Below are positions 28,938-56,177 of a stretch of DNA of 64,000 nucleotides, one piece after another. Within the stretch, counting starts at the first letter, position 1. Each line of letters begins with the position of its first letter. Below the pieces are notes generated by a model. That model was given only the letters and a program-made list of their open reading frames with translations. It was not told the DNA's origin and ran no database searches. Position numbers and translations under genes: made by a program. This DNA is from a virus: positions 96,001-160,000 of IMG/VR virus record IMGVR_UViG_3300032294_002877. One strand, written 5' to 3'.

Positions 28938-28964
28938 CCCCCTATTTAAAGGAGACAGACTGAG

Positions 28965-30859
28965 ATGGACGTGAATAAAAGGTATGTGCCTTTACACGTC
29001 CATTCCTAGGTGAATCTCATTATTCACTTTTGGATGGACTTTCAAAACCCTCGCAGATAGCAGAAAGATGCGTCAATATTGGCGTAAACTCCTGCGCACT
29101 TACTGATCATGGAACCATATCGGGATGTGTTCAATTCTATCAAGAATTAAAAGCTAAAAAGATTAAGCCTATTCTTGGTTGTGAGCTATATTTATGTCAT
29201 CAAAATGCCACAATAAAGACTAAGGACAATTCATCCCTAAGTCATTTCATAGTTTTGGCTAAAAATTTTGCCGGTTGGAAAACACTGATCAAGATAGTAT
29301 CTGAAGCCAATAAACCAAATAAATTTTATCATAAGCCAAGATTAAGTATGGCTGAGTTAGCAGAATATTTAGACGGTAATATTATTGGGTTCTGTGGACA
29401 TCTAGGATCATATTTGTCCAATATAATAGAAAATAAAGACGGGTCTGAATCAAAGAAGTTGGGTATAGATTTTATCTCACAGATGAATGATATTTTTGGT
29501 AAAGGCAATTTCTTTTTAGAGTCTCAGCTAATGGACCAACAGCACAATCCTGCTCAAGTACAACTAACAGAATACATAAGAAACTTAGGTAGTGCGACAA
29601 ATACAAAAGTAATATGCACTCCCGATGCTCATTATTGTGAGAAAAGCGATGCTGTTGATCAGCGCATACTCCTATGCAACAATCTAAAGACTACTCTTGT
29701 TAATATAAATAAGAGATTATTAGATAATGAAGATGTTCCGATGTCGTGTTTTTTCAGATCGGACAACTATCATATTTTATCGCCAGAAGAGATGATAGAT
29801 ATTCATACAGAGGAAGAAATAGATAATACAAATTATCTTAACTCATTATGCGAAGAATACTCCATTCTTAGCAAACCATTACTTCCTCCCTTCTCTTGCC
29901 CAGACGGATACGATCCAGATGAGTATCTTAGGGAACTGTGTCGCAAAGGCTGGAGAGAAAAAATATCTAGTGTTATTGCTGAAAATGAGCAACAAGAATA
30001 TCTTGATAGAATCAAATACGAACTAGAAATTTTACAGGGTGCCGGGCTTAGTAGTTATTTTTTGATTGTTCAGGATATAGTCGAGTATGTTCGTCAACAA
30101 AATTGGCTTCCGGGTGTCGGTAGAGGTAGTGCTGCCGGATGTCTGGTGTCATATTTAATCGGAATTACTAATATTGATCCAATCAAGTATAACCTTCTAT
30201 TTGAAAGATTCTATAATGTTGGAAGAAATTCAGCTGATAGAATCTCAATGCCAGATATCGATGTTGACGTTCCGATCAACAAACGAGAGCTGATCATAGA
30301 ATACATAAAAAATAAATATGGTCAAGAAAAAGTATCTCAGATGATAACATATAATACTATGAAGGGTCGCGGTGCTCTAAAAGAAGTTCTACGAGTATAT
30401 GATAATATAACTTTTGAAGAGATGAATAAAATAACCAAAAATATACCTGATGAGGCTAAAATAGCGGACGAATTACAAGAGATGAAAGAAGATACTGGCG
30501 AATCCTCGATCATACGCTGGGCATTAGAAAATAATGTTGACAAACTCAAAGAGTGGTGCTATATTAATACTGATGGCACCCTGGCTGGGCCGTTGTCAAA
30601 AAGGTTTGAGCAGGCTATTCGTTTAGAGGGAACTAAATCTAATCAATCCAAACATGCGGCTGGAGTTGTGATATCTAGTCAAGAATTATCGAGTGTTTGT
30701 CCGATGGTTTATGATAGCAAAAATGATCAAGCAATAGCTGGTATGGAGATGCAAGATTTAGAAGCGATTGGTGTAATCAAGTTCGATATTTTAGGTATCG
30801 CTTTATTAGACAAAATGATGAACATATCAGACGTACTAAAAAATGGAGACTCTTTATGA
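28965..30859 (+). CDS. dnaE: DNA polymerase III alpha, N-terminal part (PHP plus catalytic palm), with an 11-nt interruption at 29007-29017
   Basis: AAAGGAG SD, then MDVNKRYVPLHVHS* in one frame and HYSLLDGLSKP, TDHG, GCELY, DAHY, GRGSAAG, PDIDVD, HAAG, KFDILG in another frame. Confidence 0.9.
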
Positions 30860-31035
30860 TTAAAACATTTGCAGAATTACCGGTTGGTGCTAGATTTTCG
30901 GTAGATAATATTGAATATATAAAAACAGAAACAATCAGAGTTAGCTGCTGTCAAAGCATAAATGCTGAACAAGTAGCCAATGCGTCAGTTAAGAACTTTT
31001 TTGCAGACGATAAAGCGGTAAATATTAATGCCTAA
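30856..31035 (+). CDS. Small hypothetical protein (59 aa; not in the ORF track)
   Basis: MIKTFAELPVGARF...RVSCCQSINA...NINA*. ATGA-coupled to dnaE-N and overlaps the exonuclease start. Confidence 0.65.
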   Translation: MIKTFAELPVGARFSVDNIEYIKTETIRVSCCQSINAEQVANASVKNFFADDKAVNINA

Positions 31036-31723
31036 TTTCCAAAAAATTTGTGTCTTTGATCTGGAAACGGACGGATCGAATCCAGACAAGTGTAGTCCTG
31101 TACAAATAGCGGCTGTGATGGTTGATCCATTGTCTTTGGATATTGTTCCAAATTCAGAATTCAATATTAATCTCAAACCAGAAGCTATTGAGGACAATCC
31201 TGAATATGCATATGCAGATAGCGATGTGTTAGACTTTCATGCTAAAGTTAGGGGATCTTCTAAGCAGGAGATTTTGAACGAATGGAAAGGATATCAGAAA
31301 CAGGATCTAGGATGGAAATTATTTGTTTCGTATCTAGAGATGTATCATATCAGATCCGATAAAAAATCTTGTTTTACGGCTCCTATTGCTGGTGGATTTA
31401 ATATAAATAGGTTTGATCTAAGAATTATAGATAGGCTTAGCGTGAAATATAATAATCTAAATAAAGAAGGTAGAAGCTCCTTATTCTATCCTAGAGATGT
31501 TATAGATGTAATGAATATGTTATTTTATTGGTTTGAAGGCAATAATGAGCTCAAGAACTACACACTAGATAATCTTAGAGATTACTTAGGATTAAGCAAA
31601 GAAGGGGCTCATGACGCATTGAAGGACGTCAAAGATACGGCCCAGATACTTGTAAGGTTTCTAAAGTTACACAGAAATTTATCCAAGAAAGTAAAATTTA
31701 AGGGATCGTTTGTTAATGTCTGA
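31028..31723 (+). CDS. DEDDh 3'-5' exonuclease (DnaQ/epsilon-like)
   Basis: FDLETDG (ExoI), GFNINRFD (ExoII), HDALKD (ExoIII). Confidence 0.9.
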   Translation: MPNFQKICVFDLETDGSNPDKCSPVQIAAVMVDPLSLDIVPNSEFNINLKPEAIEDNPEYAYADSDVLDFHAKVRGSSKQEILNEWKGYQKQDLGWKLFVSYLEMYHIRSDKKSCFTAPIAGGFNINRFDLRIIDRLSVKYNNLNKEGRSSLFYPRDVIDVMNMLFYWFEGNNELKNYTLDNLRDYLGLSKEGAHDALKDVKDTAQILVRFLKLHRNLSKKVKFKGSFVNV

Positions 31724-33344
31724 ATACTTTGTTTTTGACTGCGGATGCAAATTCCGTGTTTTGGATAACAGCGGAGAATTTCCTCTGATAGATTTTTCTC
31801 CAAAATTAGAGAATATTAATTTATCATGTTCTAGAACCTGGGATCTGATTAGTTCTGGAAATACTAAGGGTTGTTTTCAGTTAGAGTCTAGATTAGGACA
31901 AATGATGGCTAAAAAATTAAAGCCAGAGAATATAGAACAACTCTCGGCCTTAATTGCTGTGCTCAGACCAGGAACATTGGAGGCCATACGAGACGGTAAA
32001 AGCGTCACCAATCACTATATAGATAAAAAGAACGGTCTTGAGTCTATAGACTATTTCCATACTGCTTTAGAGCCTATTCTAGATAAAACGTATGGAGAAA
32101 TGATATATCAAGAACAAGCGATGGAAATTGCACAAACCATAGCGGGCTTCGATCTAAAAGAAGCGGACATGTTACGTAAAGCTATTGGTAAGAAAAAACC
32201 CGAGGAAATGGCCAAATTGAAAAACAAATTCATAGATGGATCTGTGAAGCAAAATATAGTCACGGAATCACAAGCAGAAGAAATTTTCGGATGGATTCAG
32301 AAAAGCCAACGATATAGCTTTAATAAATCGCATTCTGTTAGTTATGCTATTAATGCATATGTATCTGCGTATGCAAAAGCTCATTTTCCGAGAGTTTTTT
32401 TTGCTTCTTATCTAAAATTTGCTAAAGACAAAATAGACCCTCAAAGAGAAATTAAAGAATTGGTTAGAAATGCTAATGAGATGGATATTGGAGTAAGAAC
32501 ACCAGATTTCAGGAATCTAAACAGGTTCTTTCTGATTAAAAACAAAGAGATCTATTTTGGATTAACCGATATTAAAGGTGTCGGAGACTCTGTATATAAA
32601 AAAATAATAGATCTATGTAAGGATATAGATTTATCCAAAGCTAGCTGGCTAGACATTCTATTTAAAATATTATTGAATATTAATTCTACTGCGAGCAAAG
32701 CACTGATAAGCAGTGGAGCTATAGATTATTTTCATAAAAATAGAACAGAAATGCTATTTGAGTATGAGGTAGTATCTTCTTTTACTAAAAAAGAAATAGA
32801 AAAACTAATTGCTCTATATGAACAAGATCATAATATATCAGATTTAAATAAACTAATAGAATTAGGTATTAATGGTTCTATAGCGAATAAAAATAGAATA
32901 GAGATTTTTAAGAATTTACTAAAATCTTTACGTCATCCTCCGTATTCACTAACGGATAAAATAGAGTGGTTGTCTGATTCTGAAAATTCTTTACTAGGAG
33001 TATCAATAACTTGTTCGAAGCTAGACTCATACGATATAGAGATGACTAATACTAATTGTAAAACTTTTAAGACGACTCTATTATCTGATAAGATTGTTAT
33101 AGCAGGAGAGATAACGAATATAAATGTTGTTAAAACAAAGACTGGTAAAAATCCGGGACAAGAGATGGCTTTTATAAGTATAGAGGATCAGACAGGCATA
33201 CTGGATTCAGTCATAATGTTTCCGGAGCAATGGTCTAATTTCAAATCTCATTTATTCGTTGGAAATGTTCTGATTTTTGTAGGGAATAAGGCGAAAAACA
33301 AGGACGGTCTTATAGTTGAAAAGTGTTTTGTTCCGCGAACTTGA
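31716..33344 (+). CDS. dnaE: DNA polymerase III alpha, C-terminal part (fingers, HhH, OB fold)
   Basis: TKGCFQLES, RPG, IYQEQAM, ADMLRKAIGKK, YSFNKSHSVSY, FGLTDIKGVG, EMAFISIED. Confidence 0.9.
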   Translation: MSEYFVFDCGCKFRVLDNSGEFPLIDFSPKLENINLSCSRTWDLISSGNTKGCFQLESRLGQMMAKKLKPENIEQLSALIAVLRPGTLEAIRDGKSVTNHYIDKKNGLESIDYFHTALEPILDKTYGEMIYQEQAMEIAQTIAGFDLKEADMLRKAIGKKKPEEMAKLKNKFIDGSVKQNIVTESQAEEIFGWIQKSQRYSFNKSHSVSYAINAYVSAYAKAHFPRVFFASYLKFAKDKIDPQREIKELVRNANEMDIGVRTPDFRNLNRFFLIKNKEIYFGLTDIKGVGDSVYKKIIDLCKDIDLSKASWLDILFKILLNINSTASKALISSGAIDYFHKNRTEMLFEYEVVSSFTKKEIEKLIALYEQDHNISDLNKLIELGINGSIANKNRIEIFKNLLKSLRHPPYSLTDKIEWLSDSENSLLGVSITCSKLDSYDIEMTNTNCKTFKTTLLSDKIVIAGEITNINVVKTKTGKNPGQEMAFISIEDQTGILDSVIMFPEQWSNFKSHLFVGNVLIFVGNKAKNKDGLIVEKCFVPRT

Positions 33345-42251: not shown

Positions 42252-42659
42252 CTATTTCTGAATCTTACCCCATTTACCAACAGGACATTCTTGATCGGCC
42301 CAGGCTAGTTTGCTTACAAATTGTTTTGTGCGAACTAGTGGACACCCACATTTTGAACAAGTATCGTCTTTAAAGAATTCGCAACCAAGACAAATATTAT
42401 GTCTTTGGATGATCTCTTCTTCTGTACACATTGGTAAACCATTACTAATATGCTCTGCTGTTGCTTTTGCAAAATTTTTTAATTTTGTAACAAACGTTAC
42501 CTCATCGCCGGGAGCACGATGAAGAGGCTTTCGACATATAAATACCGGCATTGTTTCTTGTTTCGTTTCCGAACTAATTTTTAATCCACAATTGATACAT
42601 TCGAAATTGTATCCGTCTTGAGTTATAAAACTACAAAAGATATTCTCAGAAGTATTCAT
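42252..42659 (-). CDS. Cys-rich protein (DUF6171-like C-terminus)
   Basis: CINCG; RHNICLGCEF..TCSKCGCPL...CPVGKW. ATG 42659, overlapping the upstream stop, preferred over 42701. Confidence 0.65.
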   Translation of the reverse strand: MNTSENIFCSFITQDGYNFECINCGLKISSETKQETMPVFICRKPLHRAPGDEVTFVTKLKNFAKATAEHISNGLPMCTEEEIIQRHNICLGCEFFKDDTCSKCGCPLVRTKQFVSKLAWADQECPVGKWGKIQK

Positions 42660-45600
42660 AAGGAATCCACTCCCATATTTCTTTAGAGTCCATGATATCA
42701 TTCTTATTCTCTACACCATCAGTACTACCAAAAAATCCTCTAAATATCATTTCGTTCATCCACTGGTAAAATGTTGGCGTTGGTATTATCTGGCCATCTG
42801 TTTTGTCCGGGTATGGATCGTTTGGATTGCCAGTATTAACCTTTACGCATCTCCATCCTAGATAATTATTGTACATTGGTCCCCCCTTAGGAGGAATAAT
42901 ATCAGGTCCTAATCTACCATAGTAATCGTATACGTATCTACTATATAGATTATCAGTGGTTTTTAATTTTCTGGGAATATTTCTAAATTTAATAAAAACT
43001 TGTGAAGAATCATTGAGATTAAAAATATTTTTGACTTTTCCTCTAATATTAGCCGGACTTCTTGGTACAATATATGTTTCTCTAACTTTAACTAGTGTAT
43101 CCCTAATATTATTATCACACGATAAGAAAAACTCTCGGTCCATAGTTATCAGATTTTCTGTTTCACCCCAATCTACTCCTGGATATTTGGCTTTTTCTTC
43201 AGCGACTCTATTATTTGTATAACTCAAACCATTACCTGTCAATATTTCGTCAGCCGCAGGATTAGGAGATGTAACTTTGTCTTTACATACAGCATCGCAT
43301 TCTGGGAATTGATAGAATTCTACCACAGGAAGACATTCGTATGTTACGGTCTTTAAAATTTTGACATTAACATCGTACGATAACGAGCACTCTTGCTCTG
43401 GATCAATTGAAATAAAATAATATTGTTTGGGTATATAATTAATATTAATAGCTTGTGATACTGGATTTTGAGCAATATTTATATCATAATATGGCAGAAC
43501 ACCTGATGGCGTTTTGTTATTCTCTTCGAATACTGATAAAATCTCATTTCTCTCAGCATATAATTCAGAAAGTTTTTTCTTTGCTCTATAACCCGAACAT
43601 TTTACATTAAACTCATCGGTAGGATAATAGCCTTTACGAAAACATCCTGATGGATCAGCAGGCAGATTACTATAGAATAGCTCCAAATCCGTTATGCTAG
43701 AGATAGTATCAAAATTGATATTACTAGCATCCAAAGGAGTATCCGACTGAGAATTTAGATTAGTTAATCGCGTATTAAGAACACCAGTTTGATCAGGAAG
43801 AAGTCTAATTGTTGGAATATTTATATTATAATCATTCTCTATGATTATCTCTCCTGTAGTGGCCGGTGACAGTTGAGTTTTAAATTTGTCCGACTTTAAG
43901 TCTATAAAAGAATATTCTTCGTTATTTATAAGTAGATTGTTTTGAATATTTCTTTTTAATCGATCCAAATCTATGCCTGTTATCGGCACCCCACTAGTAA
44001 ATTTTAGTGACGTACTATCTAAAGATAATCCGCTAGAAAAAATTAAGCTATAATTATTTAAAGCGTCTAGAAGATATGCAGCACTATTTAATCTATACGG
44101 ATATGCTACCAATAAATCTTTTTTAACATCCTGATCAGAAAAATCTATTTTTAAAAATGTTGTTGTCCCAGACTGTTGAACCATAATACTATTGAATTTA
44201 TTTTTATTATTTTCGTGGTTGTTTAATATTTCGTCCGTATCAAATATTTTGTTTGGATGAGAAGAGTCTATAAAAGAATACATGGGAGGCTCTAGATATT
44301 GTGATCCATAACCTATAGAACCTTCTGCTGTAGCTACAGAATGTACGTCTAGTATAGATTTATTGATATGATTTTGTTTAGCATTAGATTTCGTTAGCCC
44401 CCATTTGCCAACAGTTAATTTATCGTTTTTAGTTACATTATCTTTGTATATAACAATACTGTTAGAATTTTCTAATGTTTTGCCAATATACCCAGAATCG
44501 ACACCATCAGGTAATGGGCTGTTTAGAGTTAATACGGTATTGTGCTGGTCATTAAAATATATCAATGCTTTTTGTGCTATAGTATTAGTAAATAAATCAT
44601 TTGTCCCTGTTGCTCCTGGTTGTTTCATCACCGCTATTGTATCATCTATATCATAAAGATTATATAACCTAGATCCTGGTATAGTAATAATTTTTTTAGC
44701 TTCAATATTACTATTTGTTATAGTATTATTGCCCCACAATCTATCATATTGTAATGTTTGTCTAATCCCAGGATCAGGATATCTAATCCAGGAACCCGAT
44801 CTAGCGTAATACACTCCATTTTGTGAAACTGTTGTCTGATTGGCTACATAAACAAGGTCATTTTCTTTGAGTGTTACAGATGAAGTGGTTGATAGCGGAA
44901 CTGTCAATCCGGTTAATGGAACATTCATAGTAGTGTCAAGAACTATAACATTTTTATTCACTATCTCGTATATATTTGCAACCCTAGTAAAAGAAAAATT
45001 AGAGAGAGGAGTAATCATATCTTTGTGAAGTCTTATATACTTATATCGATTTTTGGCCAATATGGCTGTGTTATTATACTTATATATAGGAACCTCTAGT
45101 CTGTACCAATTGAAACGATCTTTACTAATTTGAATCAAAGCTTTTGAAGATGATCCCGGGTATGTTCCATCGTACACTGGCTTAAAATAGAATCTTTCTT
45201 GTTCTTGCTGTTGTCTCTGAAACCTAATATCGTAAAGCATACTAATTATAGGATCTCCTCTACCTCCTATAGCAAAAGAGGCTTGTAAAATAGAGATCTC
45301 AGCCAAAGCGCCAACTAGACTATAGAACGGAGTAAAAAACCAACCAACAAAAGGAAATAATATTTGTCTATATGTTAGCGGTTTTGACAATTCTATATTA
45401 CCAGGATATCTACAAGTATTTGTGCTGATATAGTTATATGGAGCATTAAGATTAATTTTAGGTAGAAGATATTCTTTATTTGTAAAATCTGCTATATAAT
45501 TATATCCTGTCCTGCTAACTTGTTCCGATTCATAATCTATAGTACCCAAGTAATCTTGTGTTGTGTATTTTATGGTCGAAGCTGTGTGTGCTATAACAGA

Positions 45601-48600
45601 CCAGTTGCATATGCTACTTAGTATAGTGTTAGAAGATATTCTACTTTCATATACATTTAATCCCGACAGTTCGCTATTATGTACGGTATTATCTAGAGAT
45701 TGTATTTTTTCTTCTGGTCCAAGAACATACAGTTTTAATGTAAAAACAGTATTTCTGAGAGGAAGATTTTTAAATTTAGCCAATGCTGTATCTATAAGAT
45801 TAATTCTATTATTCTTGATTATCTGTTTATGGAGGATAGTTTGTTTTTCAGAGTAGCCTGTTGGAGACAGAGTCGGCTGTACAACACTATCATTTGCGAT
45901 AGCTTGGCTATGAACAGAAACTCCGGAAACAGATGTTTTGTTTTCATCGGAAAAGGTATTGTTGAATGTCATATTGTCAGAAAAGGTCAAACTAAAATGA
46001 TATCCATAGTTATCAAGATTTTCTTGATTATAGAGATATAGAATACTTGTATTAGGTTTATTAGTTGTGTTAGTGTTTTTAAGCTTGTCTAAAAAGTCTA
46101 AAACAGTAACGTCCGATAACGAGCTGCCATTTGATCTTAGTGTAGAGAGCCAGGAGATTGGGGGAGATGTTCTATCTGTGTCTTTATCGAAAGGAATAAA
46201 TATTTTATCCTTATAAATGTTGTTATTAGACGATACTATGCTATCTAATGTAGGATTATATACTTCCAAAGCCATGACTATATTTTTAGGGTTTGGAATA
46301 TTCATTAAATTAATTTTAATTTCTATATCTTTTAGTTTGAGAGCATTCATACTATCTTTCATCAAAACATATTGATAAGTAGGAGTATAATTACAATCAA
46401 ATTCAACCGGCGCTTCCTCGTATTTGATCAGTATAAAATCATCAACCATCTCTTGATTTTTATAGTCTAATCCATTGAAGTTTCTTATACCGTAGTTCCT
46501 GTCTTGATCATACCATTCTGGACTACTAGCATCAGCGTAACTATCTACTCTTACGGCACTTCGATACTCCATAGGAACATTATTATCGCTATTATTTATT
46601 GATCTGAGATTATAAAATCCAGGACCGATAAAGTTGTATGACTTATATTTTTCTACATCAAACTTTTGAATAGAGCTAATATTAGGACTGCTAATAGCAG
46701 AAACATTAGAATATGTTCCATTATATCCTAATGGATTATATCCTGTTGGAGTGTAATAATACCAGCCAGAATTTGGATGAAAAAACCCTTTATCAAAAGT
46801 TGTATATCCAGTCACTGGGATATCCACAAGATGACATCTATAAAAAGGTTCAATACCACCATAATTATTATGTCCGGACATTACAGCTAATGGCGCAGCA
46901 GCAGAAGCTAAATATCCGCTTGCGAGTTCTTGATCAATAACGGGTTGAGTTTTATCTGTTGGATCTACTCCCCATGGCGTATTAAGAGGAATTTTATCGT
47001 ATGATTGGATGGTGTTATTTGTTTTGATTGGGTGGTATGGGATTTCTACTCCTATTTTTTCGACAATATTTTTTGAATATCCTCCATAGGTATATATATT
47101 TGGGGCATAAACTGTTGATACCTTTGGTAGGCTAAAACTAACTCTAGTATCTCTTTCCCAATTTTCACCTACCTTTTTATATGCTCTAACATCAAAAGAA
47201 TCGAACTCTCTATTTATTCTATAGAATCTGGCGGCGCCAGTTATAATACCGGCCCCAAATGTATCTCGTTGTCTAGCTAATCTTGGCTCGTAATAGCTTT
47301 TACATTGAGATAATCTGTCGTCGCTATCTCTCATTAATTCTATTTTAATAGATTGTAATTTAAATACGGTATTATTCGGCTTAAATGTTATGTGTAAATC
47401 ATTTGTTAATGTGTCTGGCTTTTGATAATTAGTAATACTAATTTTTTTATCTACGAACCGTCTGTCTACAACAAATATTGGATTTGAATTGTCTGATACA
47501 TACATATCGCTATCTATAAACCAAACCATTCCGTTTTTATTGAACGCTATTTTCCTGAAATTCGGCACCATAGCTCTGTATTTATTAGGAACAATATCCT
47601 GATTATAGCTCATTAGTGTCGGTAAGGTTTTACCTGGCTCATATTGATTACTGTTATCGTGAACATATACTCTAATATTTTCTATAGATTTTAGAGTAGA
47701 ACCAAATGATGTTATTCCTTGTATAGTATATAATCCTGTTTGTTTTACAAAAATACTCGGATCAAAATCGGCAGAAGTTCTGTTTCTTCTCATAACGTCA
47801 GTATTTCCGTTTGTTGCAAAATCAGAAAATCTCAAACAATCCGGACCATCTACAAGGGACCAAGAATAAGATACGTTCTCGGATAGTGAATCGTCAACAT
47901 TCGCTGTAATGTCTATTTGAATATGATTACCATTATGTATTTGATCACCCTCGCCCCTATCTAAATCTTCTGGTAATTTGATACTGATATCCTTATTAAA
48001 TATTGTATAAATTTTTTCTGGTATCTTAGGCATAGCCATATTAGCTAATGGTACTGTGGTTATCTTATTGGGATCGTTTACATCTCCAATTTTACATAGA
48101 CAACCACTAGCAGATAACGTCGGATCCATCTGCGATTCTGTATAAATATCTCCAAAATCAATTCTCATATCATTATATATGACATCATCCGGAGTCAGTG
48201 TTTTACTTATAAAAGTTTTGATTTTACAGTCGATCAGGGCGTGTGGGCCGTCACAATTGATAAGCTTATTATATTTAATTTTTGTGTTTGTGTTTATTTT
48301 TATATAGCCGCCGTATTTATTTAATAATTGCTGATACAATTGTTTTTTATTAGTAATATAATTAGTAGCCAATGTCTGTTTTTGTAAGAAGTATGATTGT
48401 TGTTTGTAGTATTGTAAAATCTTAGCTACTATTGTAATTAATTTTCTTATTTCTGTATTAGTATTGGTATCGGCTACAGTATTTACATACTCATTATATA
48501 TCAAGTTTTGCAAAAAATCATCTTGTAAATAATTAATATTAACTCTGTCTATCAAAGGAGATGTAGCAAGTATATAGCATAATTTTTTAAGTTTTTCTAG

Positions 48601-49602
48601 TTTGTATACAGATCCTAATCCATCGAAGGTTTTTATACGATTAATCGTTAGGCTATTATATATAGCCCTATATACATGGTATAGACTTGGAGATAAATAT
48701 GATCTGCTTGGTAGTTTTGTTGTAGAGAATACCTGTCTATCATACTTGTCTTTCCCTCCTATAAAATAGGAATAAAATTCTCCATTACTAATCCATAAAT
48801 CATAATCTTTAATATTATCATGAACATAATTAGTATTATCTTCGATATAAAACTTCAAACCGTTAGTAGAGTCCATAATAGATAAAGGCACGAGTTCCAA
48901 TTCTTCGTTGGTATTAAATACAAAAGAACCATTATCCAGAATACTCGGATCGGCAATAAATTTAGAAGAATCTTTATCTAATCTCTTGATTGTATTATTA
49001 TCTATCTTGATGACAGTATCTGTTGTTGCTATTGTGTATGAAATATTATTTCTTTTATATGTTAGATTAATATTGGGCTTGATACGAGTACCAGGAATAA
49101 TCTGATCAAAATTATACAATGTAGAAGATTTATGTATAGCATTTTTCTTGTACCAAAATAAAACACCATACTCTACATCATATGCAGATAAATTTGTGTT
49201 TATGATCCAGTCTACACACAAATCCATAGATCCGGACTCAATATCCCAATTATTAAATTTAACCGCAGGAAATTTGAATAACTCCTCTACACCATAGACT
49301 TTTGCTCCAATAACACTATTTAAATATGTTTCTTTATTGTAAATATAATCATTATGAGATATTATTGCTGGCAACCAAACATCATCTAATTCCGAAATAG
49401 ATATACCGTCAGGAGTATTAGAATCCATAATAGTTTTTAATATATTTGTGCTGGTGGTTGCTATGGATTCTCCATCGTTGGTGTTGTTATATCGTATCTT
49501 AAAGGAAGTAGCGTCTTCTACTAGGGTATGAGGTTTGAGATCATAACATAAAATTTTGTCATGAACTATACAATTTTTTTTATAGTTTTTAGGATATCCC
49601 AT
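42646..49602 (-). CDS. Very large virion structural or tail protein (2318 aa)
   Basis: Uninterrupted ORF rich in N/T/I/Y. Tail-fibre-like motif LKENDLVYVANQTTVSQNGVY...GSWIR and PKD-like SYSWSLVDGP. Confidence 0.75.
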   Translation of the reverse strand: MGYPKNYKKNCIVHDKILCYDLKPHTLVEDATSFKIRYNNTNDGESIATTSTNILKTIMDSNTPDGISISELDDVWLPAIISHNDYIYNKETYLNSVIGAKVYGVEELFKFPAVKFNNWDIESGSMDLCVDWIINTNLSAYDVEYGVLFWYKKNAIHKSSTLYNFDQIIPGTRIKPNINLTYKRNNISYTIATTDTVIKIDNNTIKRLDKDSSKFIADPSILDNGSFVFNTNEELELVPLSIMDSTNGLKFYIEDNTNYVHDNIKDYDLWISNGEFYSYFIGGKDKYDRQVFSTTKLPSRSYLSPSLYHVYRAIYNSLTINRIKTFDGLGSVYKLEKLKKLCYILATSPLIDRVNINYLQDDFLQNLIYNEYVNTVADTNTNTEIRKLITIVAKILQYYKQQSYFLQKQTLATNYITNKKQLYQQLLNKYGGYIKINTNTKIKYNKLINCDGPHALIDCKIKTFISKTLTPDDVIYNDMRIDFGDIYTESQMDPTLSASGCLCKIGDVNDPNKITTVPLANMAMPKIPEKIYTIFNKDISIKLPEDLDRGEGDQIHNGNHIQIDITANVDDSLSENVSYSWSLVDGPDCLRFSDFATNGNTDVMRRNRTSADFDPSIFVKQTGLYTIQGITSFGSTLKSIENIRVYVHDNSNQYEPGKTLPTLMSYNQDIVPNKYRAMVPNFRKIAFNKNGMVWFIDSDMYVSDNSNPIFVVDRRFVDKKISITNYQKPDTLTNDLHITFKPNNTVFKLQSIKIELMRDSDDRLSQCKSYYEPRLARQRDTFGAGIITGAARFYRINREFDSFDVRAYKKVGENWERDTRVSFSLPKVSTVYAPNIYTYGGYSKNIVEKIGVEIPYHPIKTNNTIQSYDKIPLNTPWGVDPTDKTQPVIDQELASGYLASAAAPLAVMSGHNNYGGIEPFYRCHLVDIPVTGYTTFDKGFFHPNSGWYYYTPTGYNPLGYNGTYSNVSAISSPNISSIQKFDVEKYKSYNFIGPGFYNLRSINNSDNNVPMEYRSAVRVDSYADASSPEWYDQDRNYGIRNFNGLDYKNQEMVDDFILIKYEEAPVEFDCNYTPTYQYVLMKDSMNALKLKDIEIKINLMNIPNPKNIVMALEVYNPTLDSIVSSNNNIYKDKIFIPFDKDTDRTSPPISWLSTLRSNGSSLSDVTVLDFLDKLKNTNTTNKPNTSILYLYNQENLDNYGYHFSLTFSDNMTFNNTFSDENKTSVSGVSVHSQAIANDSVVQPTLSPTGYSEKQTILHKQIIKNNRINLIDTALAKFKNLPLRNTVFTLKLYVLGPEEKIQSLDNTVHNSELSGLNVYESRISSNTILSSICNWSVIAHTASTIKYTTQDYLGTIDYESEQVSRTGYNYIADFTNKEYLLPKINLNAPYNYISTNTCRYPGNIELSKPLTYRQILFPFVGWFFTPFYSLVGALAEISILQASFAIGGRGDPIISMLYDIRFQRQQQEQERFYFKPVYDGTYPGSSSKALIQISKDRFNWYRLEVPIYKYNNTAILAKNRYKYIRLHKDMITPLSNFSFTRVANIYEIVNKNVIVLDTTMNVPLTGLTVPLSTTSSVTLKENDLVYVANQTTVSQNGVYYARSGSWIRYPDPGIRQTLQYDRLWGNNTITNSNIEAKKIITIPGSRLYNLYDIDDTIAVMKQPGATGTNDLFTNTIAQKALIYFNDQHNTVLTLNSPLPDGVDSGYIGKTLENSNSIVIYKDNVTKNDKLTVGKWGLTKSNAKQNHINKSILDVHSVATAEGSIGYGSQYLEPPMYSFIDSSHPNKIFDTDEILNNHENNKNKFNSIMVQQSGTTTFLKIDFSDQDVKKDLLVAYPYRLNSAAYLLDALNNYSLIFSSGLSLDSTSLKFTSGVPITGIDLDRLKRNIQNNLLINNEEYSFIDLKSDKFKTQLSPATTGEIIIENDYNINIPTIRLLPDQTGVLNTRLTNLNSQSDTPLDASNINFDTISSITDLELFYSNLPADPSGCFRKGYYPTDEFNVKCSGYRAKKKLSELYAERNEILSVFEENNKTPSGVLPYYDINIAQNPVSQAININYIPKQYYFISIDPEQECSLSYDVNVKILKTVTYECLPVVEFYQFPECDAVCKDKVTSPNPAADEILTGNGLSYTNNRVAEEKAKYPGVDWGETENLITMDREFFLSCDNNIRDTLVKVRETYIVPRSPANIRGKVKNIFNLNDSSQVFIKFRNIPRKLKTTDNLYSRYVYDYYGRLGPDIIPPKGGPMYNNYLGWRCVKVNTGNPNDPYPDKTDGQIIPTPTFYQWMNEMIFRGFFGSTDGVENKNDIMDSKEIWEWIPYEYF

Positions 49603-52600
49603 TATATTTCCTTAGTAGCTGTTAATGTCCATTTCCCATTCATAAATGTAAATAATCCTTTATTTCCGGATATAACATTAAAATCAAAAGGATTATCAAA
49701 GTTCACAAGCATCGTAGGAACAGTTTCTCCTTTCTTCCTGCCTGGAATATATGACAATTCAATTGTTGCATTATTTCCCATTCCTAAAATTCCTGGAGTA
49801 ACAAAAGTTTGTTTACTGACAGGTTCGTAGTATCCTGTATCTTTATCATACCGACAAAGCAGTTTAGCACCTCGTGGAGCAGTATATCCTCCGCGGTCTT
49901 TTATAAATATTAGCCTGCGTAAACCGTTAGCTAATGGTTCCGTTGAATACTGAACATCGTCTAAGAATGCTCTTGCTGGATAAGTCTCGTCATTATCTGC
50001 GTCTTTAACCAAATCTTCTTCTAAAGTAGCATAAACCATTTTATATATGGAAGAAACGCTGTCAGCTTTTGTCGCCCAAACCTTTCTGCCTTCGTCCCAT
50101 CTAAAGTCTATTGGTCCAACCGGCCAAAGGTCTGGTCTTTCCGCCCAGTTTAGATAAAATTGTTTGAGTTTTTTCTTTGCTGTCCACTTACCGTTTTCAT
50201 ATTTTTGTGTTTTGCTGATAATTGATCCTTGGTAGCTTGTGGTTCTATCTCCTGGTTGTATTGTTACAGAATCGTCGGGTGGAAATCCGCCAGGATCACT
50301 TAGATCATCTTCGTAAGCAACTTGACTAACACTACTAGTATTTGTTATACGAGTTCCTTCTATGGTCAAAAAATCACTATCGCTTAAAACTCTATCTTTT
50401 ACGTACTCATTAACAGAATTGCTAAGTTTATATACATCTCCGATCTTTAAATCTTTAAATGTGACCGGTTTTGGAAATCCATCCTTAGCTTTAACTTTGA
50501 ATCTTTTGGGTCTACCATACTGGTCTATTTCGTATGGTTCATCGGCAGCATTTGGAACAGGATAACCCTCCAGATCGTATCCCCATCCATGTAGTACTAA
50601 TGGTCCTCGTAATCCCATAAACCTTTGATTATTTTGATATGATCTTATTTCTCCATTATTCCTATCTTTAATCTTGTTTGATAGCCTCATATCCTTATCA
50701 TAATAATCAGCATTAATAGTTATAGTCCCGTCTGTTTCATATTTTGTTAATGAATTGCTCAATGTTAGGTTTTTGGGGTTCACTGCTCCTCTGCCGACTA
50801 TTTCTATACTGTGTCTGCATCTATCATAAAACGTTCTAGGTTTAGATGAGCTATATACATTTATAGATAAATCTCCATGTACTCCGGAGCCTTCCGGATG
50901 AACGCCCTCATAATGCTGTACATTAGGATTTCTGAATTCCCCATAAGGAACCACTATGGGTTGCAAACTAACCATATTTATAGCAATAGAAACTCCTGCT
51001 TGACTAGAAGTTGTTGAAGCTGCTGTAGAAGCTGTAGAAGCCGTAGAGGTAACAGCTGTAGCATTGTATTCTAATAATGCCGATAGATCTGTACCGCTAG
51101 TTATAATATATGGTGGTAGTGTCTCTAATGATTGAGATGAAGCACTGCTAGTTATACTAGATTTTAGTTTAATATTGAGTTTTTCTTCAGGATTTATACA
51201 TTTATCGCAGTGTAAATTGTATACTCCGCTAGTTCCGTATCCGCTATTTAAATATCTCAGATAAGATACTTGTATTTTCTTGGTTCCACTACAAAATGGA
51301 CATAAGCTTCTATCATAGTATCCAAAATTGTATGTGCTGTGTTTTAAAGTAGGATAAAAAGAAACAGGAGAAAAGATACCATCTAAGCTCATCATGGATT
51401 GTAGTCCATAATCACTCGCTATCTGCGCTCTAACCTCTTTCTCTTCGTATAAACCAACGTCGGTTCGTTGTCTGATCTCGTTGCTCAAAGCAGGGATTGT
51501 GATGGCCGGGTCTGATATGTAAGATGTAGCATCTCTCCATCTTTGAGCATTATCACCAGGATCATTTCCATAGTTTATGGAAAAACTAGGGTTGTCATCC
51601 CTAAACCTACCTGCGCCACCAGAAGAAAATATTATGCCAGTAATAGGATTTGGATCTCGGGTTAATCTAGATAAATATGGATAAGATTGCCCTATTAGTA
51701 CTCTAACCGGACTCCAGCCGTATAGTTTACTTCTATAGTCTTTGGTATCGGGAGCATTGGATAATCTTTGTTGTTGTAGAGCTCTTGTTTGATTATAAAT
51801 ATTATTTGCTGTTTGTTGTGACATTTTAGATAATTGCTTATTACGTTTCAAATTATCTAAATGCATTTTTTTAACTCTATCACTATTTTCTTTATTGAAA
51901 AATCCTAATTTCCTTGTGTAAGTTCTGAAGCTATAAGTAGTTGTTATTCCTTGTTGACCGACGGTGGTCTGTATATTGGTTATAATTGGACCTCCAGTAA
52001 CATTGCCATCGGACTTTACAACTAAAACCTGATATTCTATATCCTCCGTCTTATCTGTTGGTATAAGAGGAGTAAATAATGTCGGCATACCATTAGGAAG
52101 ACTTAGTATAGGATTGGTGGTATTGTATTTAACATCAGTATACAAATAACCCGTACTAACCACTCCGGAAGGTATAGAAGCATAGTAACTGCTTCCATAC
52201 AGGAATCTTCCTCCTAAATTGAACAGTGGTAGGCCGGGCATATCTATCTGTGCAGTCTCTATAATATTCTGATAATTTGTACGACTTCTAGCATCGTTCA
52301 TAGCTACATAATCCAAAAACGCCATACCTCCATAATTCCATGGCGTATAATCGTCAATAAAGTCTACATCGGTAGATAATATCCAATTATCAACGGCTTT
52401 TTGAGCTTGATCCGGACTTATAACCACATTTGTGTACGTACACACTGGGGGTATAGCATCCGATTGTGTTATACTCAATCCTGATGGAAAAACACTACTA
52501 GGATTCACTAAATATTCTATATACGGATAATTTGTCCATGGTCCATAATTATATATATTCGATTTTAATGGTATACCAGCAAAAAACGGATGAGCCATTT

Positions 52601-55600
52601 TAGGAGCTAACTGAGCATATGCGGCTGATTTATTAGCAGGATTAGACGCATTTCCTACGACAAATCCCGGATCTTCTGTAACAGTAAATATATGAGATAG
52701 CATTTGTCTTATCCATCTCAAATCTCTTTGTCCGTCATCTGTCATATGCAAATAGATATTCAAATCCTCCATAGCTATATTCGCTATAATAGTTCTATTA
52801 GGATCTTTAGAAAATTCATCACTACTATTATTTAGAGTAATACCAGGAGCGTCTATCAGTATTCTTGGTTCTTTAAGATTTTCGGGATCTAAAAATACTA
52901 TCTTTTCGTCTATTTGTGTAGTTACGAACAGCTTTTTCATGGGCATATCCGTACCGTTGGCTCTCAAGATTTTTCTGCCAAAAGGATCAATAGCTTTCGA
53001 TCCAACCAAACTCAGCGAGAATGGAGTAAATGTTGTAGGACTTTCTATACCATATTGATTATATATAGCAGGTAGGGATATTGGCGAAGCAGATCCAGAA
53101 ACTTCGACTAATATATAGTCGGATGGAGACAATGAAGAATAGTCCAATACAGGATATGTAAAAGTTCCCTCGGCACAAGCACTATCTCTGCGATCTTTCA
53201 TGATATCCCAATTTTCGAAACTCCAATAAGGATTGAGTTTTTCTGCGGTAAATTTATTAAATTGCTGCTGACTAAGCATACATATTTCGTATCGCTTATA
53301 ATCAAATGCATCAGTAGCATTATATCCTAATACTGGTTTAATTTTACCCATTTCATCAGATATATTATACCAGTCTCTACTGCCTACTGCTATACAATTA
53401 TCTATAATGTTTCCGTATTCCTCCCATGCTCCATCATTAGTTGGAGTATAGCTATAATGAAGTTCTCCACCGCCACTAAAAACAAAGGCGGTGCCCGCCT
53501 CCGTAGGTAAAGCTATATTAGCAAAAGACGAATCTCTGTAACCAGCCAGATAAGGGGCTGTAACCATATATTTTTTACCGTAGTATTTACCAATATCAGA
53601 AACAAAATTATGCAATATTTGCAAATCTTTTAGTGCTGATTCATCAATCGAGAAAGATGCATCTGCTTTATCTGGTATTGGCTCAATAGTTTGGAGAAAA
53701 GCCCCGCTCATATTTGTTCCCAAAGTATATCCCTCCGCTAATAGCCTCCAATACCAATTATGTTTTTCTTTGGCTCTCGCTTCAGCTACGTTAGCAGCTA
53801 GTCCTTCGTTCTGATACTTTATTTTATCTTTAGCTATATATGCTTTACGTAACATCTCAACAATATCTGTTTTAAAGGTCTTAGCTAATGAATATACCAA
53901 AAATTCATCAAAACCAGCGTGAGCAGCTCGAATCTCTGATTCTGATATCAAAAAATATGAGACTCCTGATATATTATAAAAGCTCTCTAAATTAACTGAT
54001 GTTGCTGGCAATTCCGGAATTCTGAGCAATACAACTATTTGTCCTGTCCATGTATCAAACCATACTGGTCTTATTCGTCTAAAGTCTGTATTCCCTCCCT
54101 CTATATTCACATCTATTTCGTTTTCCAAAATATATCCGAAAAATGGACATATAACATCCTTGAATAAAGGAAAAAATCTTTGTTCGAAGACAGTACCCCA
54201 TGTGGCATTGTCAGCATTTTCTGCTTTTATAACTTTTCCCTTGTCGTAATTGCCTGTAGATTTACCAGCTATGCTAGATCCCAAATAGTCCTTATCTGCC
54301 CAATCGATATCGGCATCCTTAAAGGGATAGCTTATATTAGCCGCTAATTTTATTTGATCATTATGTTTATATATACCAGCATATCCAGGATTAATGATAC
54401 TTGACAATTCCGGATTATGCAAATCTATGGCTGATGGGGTTTTTATTTTACCGTAATGAAACTGTTTCGTTACCCCGTTTGTTGTTATTCTGTTAAAATT
54501 AGCAGATATTCTGCCTAATTGCATATAGTCAATAAAGCTATTATCTCTTGGGCTATAAATATAATTGCTTTGAGTATATGCTAATCTATAACTTTTTGCT
54601 TGATATAGTCTTTGTACGGGTCCACCAACTATCATTGCTCTGGCACTAGTTTCGTTTTTTTCTTTCCCTATTGTTAATGAGCTCAAAGGATATTGATTAC
54701 ATTGAAATTGTTTTATTGTAGTTTCTATCTCGTTTTGTCTGGGTTGTGCTAATCTGGATATGGTTCTAACTTTTATAACATTGTATATTTTTCCATTAGA
54801 AACCAACGGTACCAAATCTACATAATAATCGAATCCGGCTTGTTCTGCTACGGCATTGAGCAAATCTGTGATACTGATCACTGGACCACTAATTCTAAAA
54901 TCGTCTGGAAGTCGAGGAATTTCATTAAGATCCAATAAAAATTGACATCTTTTCGTAGGAGTACCATCCTCATTATCAACAATTGTTGGTGGTATAACTC
55001 CAAATCTTTTAAATTGATCGCTGATAGGATTATACGTATCATTTTCTTGCATACTCTTAGCTAAAATTCTACCAAAAGGAGAAAACGCTGTTCTTTTGGC
55101 ATAATCACTAAATGGTACTGCACTTGATGGTGTTTTTAATAATGGGCCAACATCTGTTGCTGATGTTAATACGCTTAAAGCATCTAATATAGCATTAGCT
55201 GATATGCCATTACTATTAGACTTAGAACCACCAAATGAATCTCTTCCAAAAGATTCTAAAAATCCATAAACATTAAAAACATTAGGTATATTTCCTTCGT
55301 ATAATCGTCCATAATACTCTACTCCTAATTTACCTCTATAATTTCTTGGTCCTCCAAATAACGAATTGTTTGGTGCAGTTAGTGGGGCGGGTGTGGAGTT
55401 GGCTAATTTACTATAAATAGCTCCAGCATATCCGCCAATTATGACATAACAAGAATTCAATAAAGACTGCATGCTATTAATAGTAACGCTATATGTATTA
55501 CCGCCAGATCCTACTTGCCTAGTCCAGGATTGAACAAGTCCTCCGAATGAAAAGTTTCTTATCCTAAATAATACAGGAGTATCTATTATGTCGTATCCTT

Positions 55601-56177
55601 TATTCAGATTCGAGTTATCTAATTGCCATGCATTATTGTAAGTATTATCTGGATTGATCCGGTTCGGTTGTCCAAAAAACCCGGGGTCAGGATTGTACCA
55701 GTATTTTGATAAAAATGATGGGGGTAAATCTACCTGGCTATTGGGACTAAAGCTTCCACCTCCATTTGTAAAAAATTCATAATATACTTTGCCAGGAACC
55801 ATACGCTTAGAAATATCCATAGTTGTAGAGCTAAAAGAATTTCCTCTTTCATCTATATAACAATCATTTCCGGCACAGGCATGATAATGGTTGATAGGAA
55901 ACCTGTCTGTATCAATCGCCGGTTTGAGCATACCATCATCTTTTGCAGATAATGGAAATTGGGCAGCGATAGTGCCGTTTACGACATTGCTGTTAGCTGG
56001 TGCTCCAATAATACAACCCCTAGCAGCGGAATCATCCACAAGAGTTACCGTTAATTGAGCTGGTTGTCCTCCCCATCCCATACTAGTATTAAATCCGTTT
56101 ATACTAGCTCCCAAAAATAATGTTTGGGCAATAATATCACTACCTACTTGATTGTCAGGACATGGTTGTGTTGGCAT
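49602..56177 (-). CDS. Very large virion structural protein (2191 aa), tail or baseplate hub-like
   Basis: Uninterrupted ORF coupled to its neighbours. Starts FLGASINGFNTSMGWGGQPAQLTVTL, with later hub-like ISITDLLNAVAEQAGFDYYVDL. Confidence 0.72.
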   Translation of the reverse strand: MPTQPCPDNQVGSDIIAQTLFLGASINGFNTSMGWGGQPAQLTVTLVDDSAARGCIIGAPANSNVVNGTIAAQFPLSAKDDGMLKPAIDTDRFPINHYHACAGNDCYIDERGNSFSSTTMDISKRMVPGKVYYEFFTNGGGSFSPNSQVDLPPSFLSKYWYNPDPGFFGQPNRINPDNTYNNAWQLDNSNLNKGYDIIDTPVLFRIRNFSFGGLVQSWTRQVGSGGNTYSVTINSMQSLLNSCYVIIGGYAGAIYSKLANSTPAPLTAPNNSLFGGPRNYRGKLGVEYYGRLYEGNIPNVFNVYGFLESFGRDSFGGSKSNSNGISANAILDALSVLTSATDVGPLLKTPSSAVPFSDYAKRTAFSPFGRILAKSMQENDTYNPISDQFKRFGVIPPTIVDNEDGTPTKRCQFLLDLNEIPRLPDDFRISGPVISITDLLNAVAEQAGFDYYVDLVPLVSNGKIYNVIKVRTISRLAQPRQNEIETTIKQFQCNQYPLSSLTIGKEKNETSARAMIVGGPVQRLYQAKSYRLAYTQSNYIYSPRDNSFIDYMQLGRISANFNRITTNGVTKQFHYGKIKTPSAIDLHNPELSSIINPGYAGIYKHNDQIKLAANISYPFKDADIDWADKDYLGSSIAGKSTGNYDKGKVIKAENADNATWGTVFEQRFFPLFKDVICPFFGYILENEIDVNIEGGNTDFRRIRPVWFDTWTGQIVVLLRIPELPATSVNLESFYNISGVSYFLISESEIRAAHAGFDEFLVYSLAKTFKTDIVEMLRKAYIAKDKIKYQNEGLAANVAEARAKEKHNWYWRLLAEGYTLGTNMSGAFLQTIEPIPDKADASFSIDESALKDLQILHNFVSDIGKYYGKKYMVTAPYLAGYRDSSFANIALPTEAGTAFVFSGGGELHYSYTPTNDGAWEEYGNIIDNCIAVGSRDWYNISDEMGKIKPVLGYNATDAFDYKRYEICMLSQQQFNKFTAEKLNPYWSFENWDIMKDRRDSACAEGTFTYPVLDYSSLSPSDYILVEVSGSASPISLPAIYNQYGIESPTTFTPFSLSLVGSKAIDPFGRKILRANGTDMPMKKLFVTTQIDEKIVFLDPENLKEPRILIDAPGITLNNSSDEFSKDPNRTIIANIAMEDLNIYLHMTDDGQRDLRWIRQMLSHIFTVTEDPGFVVGNASNPANKSAAYAQLAPKMAHPFFAGIPLKSNIYNYGPWTNYPYIEYLVNPSSVFPSGLSITQSDAIPPVCTYTNVVISPDQAQKAVDNWILSTDVDFIDDYTPWNYGGMAFLDYVAMNDARSRTNYQNIIETAQIDMPGLPLFNLGGRFLYGSSYYASIPSGVVSTGYLYTDVKYNTTNPILSLPNGMPTLFTPLIPTDKTEDIEYQVLVVKSDGNVTGGPIITNIQTTVGQQGITTTYSFRTYTRKLGFFNKENSDRVKKMHLDNLKRNKQLSKMSQQTANNIYNQTRALQQQRLSNAPDTKDYRSKLYGWSPVRVLIGQSYPYLSRLTRDPNPITGIIFSSGGAGRFRDDNPSFSINYGNDPGDNAQRWRDATSYISDPAITIPALSNEIRQRTDVGLYEEKEVRAQIASDYGLQSMMSLDGIFSPVSFYPTLKHSTYNFGYYDRSLCPFCSGTKKIQVSYLRYLNSGYGTSGVYNLHCDKCINPEEKLNIKLKSSITSSASSQSLETLPPYIITSGTDLSALLEYNATAVTSTASTASTAASTTSSQAGVSIAINMVSLQPIVVPYGEFRNPNVQHYEGVHPEGSGVHGDLSINVYSSSKPRTFYDRCRHSIEIVGRGAVNPKNLTLSNSLTKYETDGTITINADYYDKDMRLSNKIKDRNNGEIRSYQNNQRFMGLRGPLVLHGWGYDLEGYPVPNAADEPYEIDQYGRPKRFKVKAKDGFPKPVTFKDLKIGDVYKLSNSVNEYVKDRVLSDSDFLTIEGTRITNTSSVSQVAYEDDLSDPGGFPPDDSVTIQPGDRTTSYQGSIISKTQKYENGKWTAKKKLKQFYLNWAERPDLWPVGPIDFRWDEGRKVWATKADSVSSIYKMVYATLEEDLVKDADNDETYPARAFLDDVQYSTEPLANGLRRLIFIKDRGGYTAPRGAKLLCRYDKDTGYYEPVSKQTFVTPGILGMGNNATIELSYIPGRKKGETVPTMLVNFDNPFDFNVISGNKGLFTFMNGKWTLTATKEI

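Follow-up and report, generated by a model that had tools for sequence, protein, structure and literature searches.

Within a stretch of 64,000 nucleotides (nt) of DNA from an uncultured phage (positions 96,001 to 160,000 of the 180-kb IMG/VR virus record IMGVR_UViG_3300032294_002877, hereafter "the window", to which all coordinates refer unless a locus is named), the gene encoding a DnaE-type DNA polymerase III alpha subunit is broken after its 14th codon, inside the metal-binding motif of its PHP domain, by a short gap that opens with a stop codon and changes the reading frame. The comparison of this gene with its environmental relatives suggests that the break is crossed by programmed translational bypass, a reading to which we give a probability of roughly 0.8 and according to which the translating ribosome would hop from one serine codon to another serine codon located 11 nt downstream. 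An earlier note on this DNA, made from the letters alone, had proposed such a hop; the comparison with relatives supports this interpretation and adds to it a second co-varying stem, formed by the start codon and the HxH codons.

The anatomy of the break, entirely located on the plus strand, can be summarized as follows. A first open reading frame (ORF) of 14 codons (ORF1, MDVNKRYVPLHVHS, 28965–29006) encodes the DnaE N-terminus with the HxH metal ligands of the PHP domain; its ATG lies 10 nt downstream of a Shine–Dalgarno (SD) motif, AAAGGAG (28948–28954), and its final sense codon is the putative take-off codon UCC (Ser, 29004–29006), directly followed by the stop UAG (29007–29009), which would occupy the A site at take-off. 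The 11-nt coding gap (UAGGUGAAUCU, 29007–29017) includes, at its 3′ end, the putative landing codon UCU (Ser, 29015–29017), which precedes the resume codon CAU (29018–29020) in the dnaE frame. From this resume codon, the N-terminal dnaE gene (ORF2, 29018–30859) encodes the rest of the PHP domain and the Pol III alpha palm. Relative to ORF1, the dnaE frame is shifted by +2/−1; it is open only from 28977 and reads ..GES-HYSLLDG ahead of and across the resume site; omitting 29007–29017 yields HVHSHYSLLDG. The earlier note had described the SD motif, the ATG, the UCC followed by UAG and the 11-nt offset to UCU-CAU in these terms, and had claimed that no usable start precedes TTG 29030: the description is confirmed, and a reading of the dnaE frame of the window likewise finds no ATG, GTG or TTG before that position. 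ORF2 matches the Pfam families PHP (2e-31) and DNA_pol3_alpha (4e-74); considering the dnaE gene products as a whole, DNA_pol3_finger and HHH_6 are matched as well, together with an OB match (tRNA_anti-codon) at 25.9 bits, slightly below the 27-bit cut-off, and the PDB entries 2hpi, 5lew and 4jom are matched at about 1e-67 to 1e-78. Judged by these matches, the gene is a DnaE-type DNA polymerase III alpha, split into two ORFs.

A protein-seeded search of viral contigs returned 38 loci at 65–77% identity, 13 of which carry an insert at exactly the window's codon. The remaining loci are uninterrupted: they begin with M..Y.PLHVHSHYSLLDG, from an ATG that overlaps the stop of an upstream PD-(D/E)XK nuclease gene, and run straight through HVHSHYSLLDG. 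After further sampling by two DNA-pattern scans of viral contigs, one scan of metagenome contigs and one alignment-seeded search, about 35 distinct haplotypes with a gap were available, from many independent metagenomes and always interrupted at the same codon. The alignment-seeded search was keyed on motifs about 440 codons downstream and is unbiased as to the N-terminus; in this sample, a gap is present in 18 of 80 loci and, when only unique N-termini are counted, in 16 of 58. Because identical or variant gaps recur at one codon across independent metagenomes, the comparison indicates that the break is neither chance nor an assembly error and that the 11 bases are real. Besides, ORF2 is intact (608–619 aa) in every gap-bearing contig of sufficient length, and SD motifs of the GGAG/AGGA type are found at the equivalent place in all gap-bearing relatives. 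Related phage dnaE genes thus display what had been anticipated of a bypass element, namely stop-containing inserts at the exact codon, mostly bounded by Ser codons and accompanied by compensatory hairpin changes.

The gaps are 9, 10, 11 or 12 nt long. The 11-nt gaps, among them that of the window, form the majority; the 9-nt gaps are UAAGUGACU (the commonest form), UAAGUGUCA and UAAGUGUCU, the 10-nt gaps UAGGUGAUCU, UAAGUGGUCU, UAGAGAAUCA, UAGGGAAUCA and UAGGUGGGCU, and the 12-nt gaps UAAGUGAGAUCA and UAAGUGGAGUCU. All of them open with UAA or UAG immediately 3′ of UCY, never with a sense codon, and all variants have UCC or UCU for take-off. Since gaps of 9–12 nt span all three frames, one common frameshift or readthrough is ruled out: in the 9- and 12-nt gaps a stop remains in frame, a simple +1 shift fails in the 10-nt gap of locus L052 because a UGA lies there in the +1 frame, and the 11-nt gaps lack a slippery site. 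Skipping the gap, on the other hand, always gives HxHSH[YF]SLLDG, whichever of the three frames is concerned. A poorly decoded A-site codon is present throughout, in the form of UAA or UAG after the take-off codon, under a standard code and in a genome with no suppressor tRNA, and the two ORFs, once the gap is skipped, would encode one contiguous conserved protein (HVHS + HYSLLDG). As read from the genome, the genetic code is indeed standard: ordinary stops in the record comprise 61 TAA, 44 TGA and 17 TAG (ORFs of at least 150 aa, covering 75% of the genome), and the phage carries 11 tRNA genes (G000:C1:17645-46765, outside the window), including a tRNA-Ser with the unusual anticodon ACU, among which there is no suppressor and none reading UCN.

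Matched take-off and landing codons, presented in the earlier note as a hallmark of the element, are a feature of the window and of 25 of 33 haplotypes (landing on UCU, UCA or UCC), but the landing codon is ACU or GCU in the other 8, which implies that matching is not obligatory and that landing is not explained by codon matching alone. Landing on ACU or GCU was observed at loci L025, L041-L043, L070, L087, L095 (9-nt gap) and L091, and in the ACU class a GUG lies 3′ of the stop in the dnaE frame.

At the protein level, two His and the Asp of the motif HQHTQFSLLDG are PHP metal ligands in Taq Pol III alpha. The HVHSHYSLLDG of gap-less relatives aligns gap-free to this Taq motif (2hpi), and the hop had been claimed in the earlier note to restore the consensus without extra residues, which agrees with both the gap-less relatives and the Taq enzyme; only a Ser-to-Ser hop preserves the Taq-like motif spacing. 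A His-to-His hop (CAU to CAY), which would fit every variant, was considered and rejected, because the invariant HxH-x6-D spacing would then be two residues short and the codon in the A site would be a sense codon. The other PHP ligands had been described as intact in the window; more broadly, among the residues read as ligands, 17 diverse members show no variation at D6, H31, E56, H76, H128, D203 or H205, and at least 90% of them retain C126. Residues 2–7 of ORF1 vary, when YxPLH[VC]HS is kept across relatives and its Leu codon takes five synonymous forms (TTA, CTG, CTT, CTA and TTG). This maintenance of PLH[VC]HS despite a varying Leu codon shows protein-level selection on ORF1, and the comparison as a whole shows that both ORFs flanking the gap are under such selection. 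Synonymous sites in codons 3–7 after the resume codon are frozen in gap-bearing genes only (TCA CTT TTG GAT GGA in 10–11 of 11), whereas the same sites vary freely in gap-less relatives; within gap-bearing genes, this freezing is confined to the 7 codons that come first after the resume codon.

Two predicted RNA structures co-vary around the break, and do so only in gap-bearing genes. MAFFT alignments misplaced both the GAG-type hairpin and the leaders of shorter length, for which reason pairs were counted on anchored positions (start codon, take-off codon and stop). The first structure, the 5′ stem, whose positions were anchored solely on the start codon and the take-off codon, pairs AUGGACGUG (28965–28973, the start codon and codons 2–3) with its exact reverse complement CACGUCCAU (28995–29003, the H-V-H codons); RNAfold predicts an inner helix within this stem-loop (AAAGGU/GCCUUU, 28978–28993), and like pairings can be recognized by eye in relatives. 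Over 10 distinct haplotypes, 85 of the 90 cells of this stem of 9 base pairs (bp) are paired, with two-sided compensatory changes at pairs 4, 5, 6 and 7, for instance ATGGACATG/CATGTCCAT or, in the variants whose motif reads HCH, ATGGCAG/CTGCCAT, ATGACGATG/CATTGTCAT and ATGGTAATG/CATTGCCAT. The observed pairing was reached in 6 of 20000 shuffles, slid registers paired 27–39% of cells, and gap-less relatives pair 2–6 of the 9 at these positions. On the basis of this covariation, residues 2–3 of the leader are dictated by RNA pairing.

The second structure is an extended take-off hairpin. According to RNAfold, its outer helix joins GUCCAUUC (28998–29005, including the first 2 nt of the take-off codon) to GGAUGGAC (29032–29039, the L-D-G-L codons), and encloses an inner hairpin (29008–29029) made of AGGUGAAU (29008–29015), the loop CUCAUU (29016–29021) and AUUCACUU (29022–29029, the Y-S-L codons). 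The hairpin pointed out in the earlier note is therefore predicted by RNAfold too, but it forms just the inner part of a larger structure with two helices, whose folding energy in the window is −20.1 kcal/mol (z −5.5). The gap essentially coincides with the 5′ arm of this inner helix, whose apical loop contains the landing and resume codons. RNAalifold recovers the outer helix, the sole pair of which outside the search pattern co-varies (UA 25, GC 3, UG 2, GU 1). The inner helix co-varies as well, from AAU/AUU to AGU/ACU or GGU/ACU, with no mixed combinations among 11-nt haplotypes, and a whole-arm variant, UAGAGAAU/AUUCUCUA, occurs in the unbiased sample with the S-L codons UCU CUA. All 14 gap-bearing haplotypes of that sample fold alike, at −17.7 to −23.0 kcal/mol (mean z −7.0), and 39 homologous gap-less segments fold at a mean of −3.4 kcal/mol (z −0.4). 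The V-H codons GUCCAU have an alternative partner at 29034–29039, and the 5′ stem and the extended take-off hairpin compete for them. We infer from these patterns that both RNA structures stimulate bypassing.

Under the bypass reading, ribosomes would initiate at AUG 28965 and synthesize the 14 residues of ORF1; with UAG in the A site, the peptidyl-tRNA-Ser held on UCC would then uncouple from the mRNA, slide over 11 nt and re-pair at UCU, and translation would resume at CAU 29018, which would give a single DnaE N-terminal polypeptide with HVHSHYSLLDG unbroken (N-terminus MDVNKRYVPLHVHSHYS..). By analogy with T4 gene 60, the location of the stop in the 5′ arm of the hairpin may slow termination or the action of release factors and thereby favor take-off; similarly, the V-H codons GUCCAU may stay paired downstream until the ribosome arrives and, upon leaving it, may re-pair with the start-codon region AUGGAC. 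The 9-bp stem zipping behind the ribosome could pull the mRNA forward by approximately the length of its arm (9 nt, for gaps of 9–12 nt), and the zipped stem could also block backward sliding and occlude the start codon. An SD-like role of the AGGUGA found in the gap was envisaged and rejected, given the existence of UAAGUGA and UAGAGAA variants.

Several observations weigh against bypassing. A landing on ACU or GCU allows only two of the three codon positions to re-pair, and the ACU class has a full UCA 1 nt further on, out of frame. The nascent chain counts just 14 residues at take-off, far below the length of the peptide signal of gene 60. The hairpin has its 3′ arm inside ORF2, which is translated after landing, and the landing codon in its loop, so that the A-site hairpin model of gene 60 is not directly transferable. 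Finally, many variants were found by DNA patterns that fix part of the element (the 3′ arm), and the unbiased sample is smaller.

Among the alternatives, termination followed by reinitiation would make ORF1 a regulatory leader, with DnaE starting from the GUG after the stop or from UUG 29030 and working without HxH. A GUG does follow the stop in most variants, in the dnaE frame in the 9- and 12-nt classes, and the stem formed by the start codon resembles a translational control element. However, in the 10- and 11-nt classes, window included, this GUG does not share the dnaE frame, and it is missing from the GAG-type hairpin class; likewise, the TTG 29030 start evoked in the earlier note is present in most variants but is not conserved, being replaced by CUG in locus L004. 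A mere leader would moreover not keep YxPLH[VC]HS while its Leu codon varies, nor would every length class preserve the frame of the SH[YF]SL codons that separate the landing site from UUG, and the conservation of the other PHP ligand positions also speaks against a polymerase deprived of HxH. Taken together, these facts make reinitiation improbable.

A class-specific recoding appears very unlikely. It would involve a −1/+2 shift in the 11-nt class, a +1 shift in the 10-nt class and stop readthrough in the 9- and 12-nt classes, adding 3–4 residues between HVHS and HYS. The −1 and +2 readings of the window's gap are both open (LGES or GES), but there is no slippery sequence at CAU UCC U, one homologous element would need three different mechanisms, and the UGA of L052 and the lack of a suppressor tRNA are obstacles to the +1 shift and to readthrough, respectively. 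Furthermore, an insertion would disrupt the H-x-H-x6-D spacing of solved DnaE structures, and the translated "insert" peptides are not conserved. Still less credible is the idea that, ahead of translation, the RNA is cleaved and religated at the hairpin, the 9–12 nt being thereby removed or edited: the gap is essentially one arm of a stable hairpin, and such a process would not need the matched landing codons that are sometimes lacking, but the conserved stop after a Ser codon and the duplicated Ser codon fit tRNA re-pairing rather than splicing, and we know of no self-splicing or enzymatic system that excises such a short asymmetric piece in bacteria or phages. As for an assembly or sequencing artifact or a recent inactivating insertion, it is effectively refuted by the comparative data, with the window's gap and many variants of it present in independent metagenomes and downstream ORFs intact at 65–77% protein identity.

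To our knowledge, efficient bypassing has been studied deeply in essentially one system, T4 gene 60 and its homologues, to which candidate short hops in a Streptomyces phage terminase and the byp elements of yeast mitochondria can be added. Bypassing in T4 gene 60 and its homologues is linked to a MobA homing-endonuclease cassette (10.1101/2022.08.31.505936; 10.1101/2024.12.09.627546; PMC5462505); in T4, a 50-nt gap bounded by Gly GGA codons lies in the Toprim motif of the topoisomerase II large subunit gene. The dnaE element resembles gene 60 in many respects: the stop directly follows the take-off codon, take-off and landing codons are usually matched, the stop belongs to the 5′ arm of a hairpin that also exists in extended form, the insert splits a metal-binding motif of an essential replication enzyme, its distribution is patchy among related phages and an HNH endonuclease adjoins the cassette in at least one relative. 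In contrast to gene 60, the dnaE element interrupts dnaE rather than a topoisomerase gene, shows no sequence homology, uses Ser UCY codons and has a gap of 9–12 nt; its take-off at codon 14 makes a long nascent-peptide signal impossible, its hairpin has a coding 3′ arm and holds the landing and resume codons in its loop, and its 5′ stem includes the start codon itself and reaches up to the take-off codon, when the gene 60 stem lies 9 nt upstream. Because gene, codons, gap length and sequence all differ, the dnaE element is not a member of the gene 60 family; it would work like gene 60, outside that homologous family.

The closest known short case is the 10-nt bypass of the large terminase of Streptomyces phage phiHau3, where candidate bypasses of 10 nt (and 7 nt) have been described, the 10-nt one using the rare codon UUA instead of a stop, and for which mass spectrometry revealed the junction peptide in E. 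coli (PMC10732093). As in dnaE, a very short gap in a conserved phage enzyme was inferred from conserved junctions, with flanking RNA structure drawing take-off and landing together; unlike the terminase, the dnaE element always has UAA or UAG as its A-site codon, concerns another gene and another host range, offers far more natural variants as well as covariation, and is known from sequence. The mitochondrial byp elements of Magnusiomyces capitatus, as far as they are summarized in PMC10732093 and PMC7026636, are 27–55 nt long and numerous in each genome. In those summaries they resemble the dnaE gap in being inserts with stops or unassigned codons that ribosomes skip, with hairpins and mobility, and differ from it in being mitochondrial, longer, present in many copies per genome and unrelated in sequence. 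Full-text literature searches found no report of bypassing in dnaE or DNA polymerase III; the earlier note likewise knew of none described for a replicative DNA polymerase. The programmed +1 frameshift of prfB, the gene of release factor 2 (RF2), is a 1-nt shift to an overlapping codon driven by an upstream SD. As would be the case in dnaE, a slowly decoded A-site stop triggers re-pairing of the P-site tRNA in prfB, but the dnaE shift would lead to a non-overlapping codon 9–12 nt away, and the gap holds no conserved SD (UAAGUG and UAGGUG both occur). The prfB case is treated in a review (PMC5009743).

From an evolutionary perspective, gap-bearing genes always bring their own spacer, SD and leader, and the distance from the APG motif of the upstream gene to the resume codon is 71–164 nt in these genes versus 35–66 nt in gap-less ones. 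In a quick IQ-TREE phylogeny of DnaE, genes with and without the gap are intermingled, and the well-supported branches require a minimum of three changes. No long co-conversion tract was detected around the gap, as the excess identity among gap-bearing genes ends at most 10 codons from the resume site. In one lineage (L005:2239-2961, and the same in L061, L096 and L113), a gene for a 240-aa HNH endonuclease is found between the PD-(D/E)XK nuclease gene and the leader, the end of its ORF overlapping the leader start. This ORF matches PHROGs 3322 (7e-22), 374 (7e-17) and 1035, with matches to endonuclease families ranging from 7e-22 to 7e-16, and its HNH identity is seen only with PHROGs: a Pfam search of the ORFs upstream of the cassette in eight lineages returned only the conserved PD-(D/E)XK nuclease, a methylase or nothing. 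The HNH gene of the L005 lineage is a candidate homing endonuclease for the bypass cassette. In the window, the leader is preceded by a 27-nt spacer with no HNH gene in it, and no homologue of the L005 endonuclease was found in the window's genome; the cassette (spacer, SD, leader and gap) probably entered together with an HNH homing endonuclease that has since been lost from this phage, a scenario based on one lineage. On this same lineage, the dnaE cassette resembles the "hit and run" picture drawn for MobA and gene 60 (10.1101/2022.08.31.505936). In another gap-bearing lineage, formed by L075 and L077, about 1.6 kb with four small ORFs separates the nuclease gene from the leader (L077:9022-10465), one of these ORFs matching PHROG 4256/4919.

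We tentatively raise a bolder possibility, which we hold to be rather less likely than its opposite: the cassette might be a ribosome-driven RNA strand-exchange device, spread by an HNH endonuclease as an immunity insert placed in the endonuclease's own highly conserved target within an essential polymerase gene, and would then constitute a second, independent origin of a gene 60-like system. In such a device, GUCCAU would first be locked with the downstream D-G codons in a hairpin of roughly −20 kcal/mol, which the ribosome would open; on leaving the exit channel, GUCCAU would zip onto AUGGAC, this 9-bp zipper would set the hop length of 9–12 nt and make the movement one-directional, and the closed start codon would keep the next ribosome from disturbing the hop.

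If programmed bypassing does operate in dnaE, it would represent an independent and widespread bypass family in the replicative polymerase of environmental phages, whose dozens of natural variants in length, codons and stems would form a ready-made mutational series. With its 14-codon leader and its gap of 9–12 nt, it would also offer a minimal system in which to ask what signals are enough for take-off, for directionality and for landing, also where the landing codon is not a full match. It would further support the idea that bypass cassettes are a general route by which selfish DNA enters the most conserved motifs of essential genes. From a practical standpoint, gene callers will annotate such a dnaE as N-terminally truncated, with a start at TTG 29030 and without two metal ligands. 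In the HCH variants (L099:3982-3992), a UUG in the dnaE frame arises from the codons CAU UGU just 5′ of the gap, as a result of which mechanical ORF calling yields a dnaE of 644 aa that spans the gap but lacks the HxH motif.

With regard to the wider context, a blastn search of the region against cultured phage genomes gave no match and tblastn returned only DnaE relatives below 34% identity, which leaves the gene with no annotated relative in that set; the pattern scan of genome contigs gave 0 matches, and hence neither a prophage copy nor a host clue. Over 29018–33344 of the window, dnaE is distributed over two ORFs, one for PHP and palm (29018–30859) and one for fingers, HhH and OB (31710–33344), between which lie a 59-aa ORF with no family match (30856–31035) and an RNase_T/DEDDh exonuclease gene (31028–31723), the ORFs of this stretch overlapping each other. 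Further along, on the minus strand (42646–56177), two adjacent giant ORFs of 2318 and 2191 aa are followed on the same strand by ORFs of 676, 871 and 658 aa.

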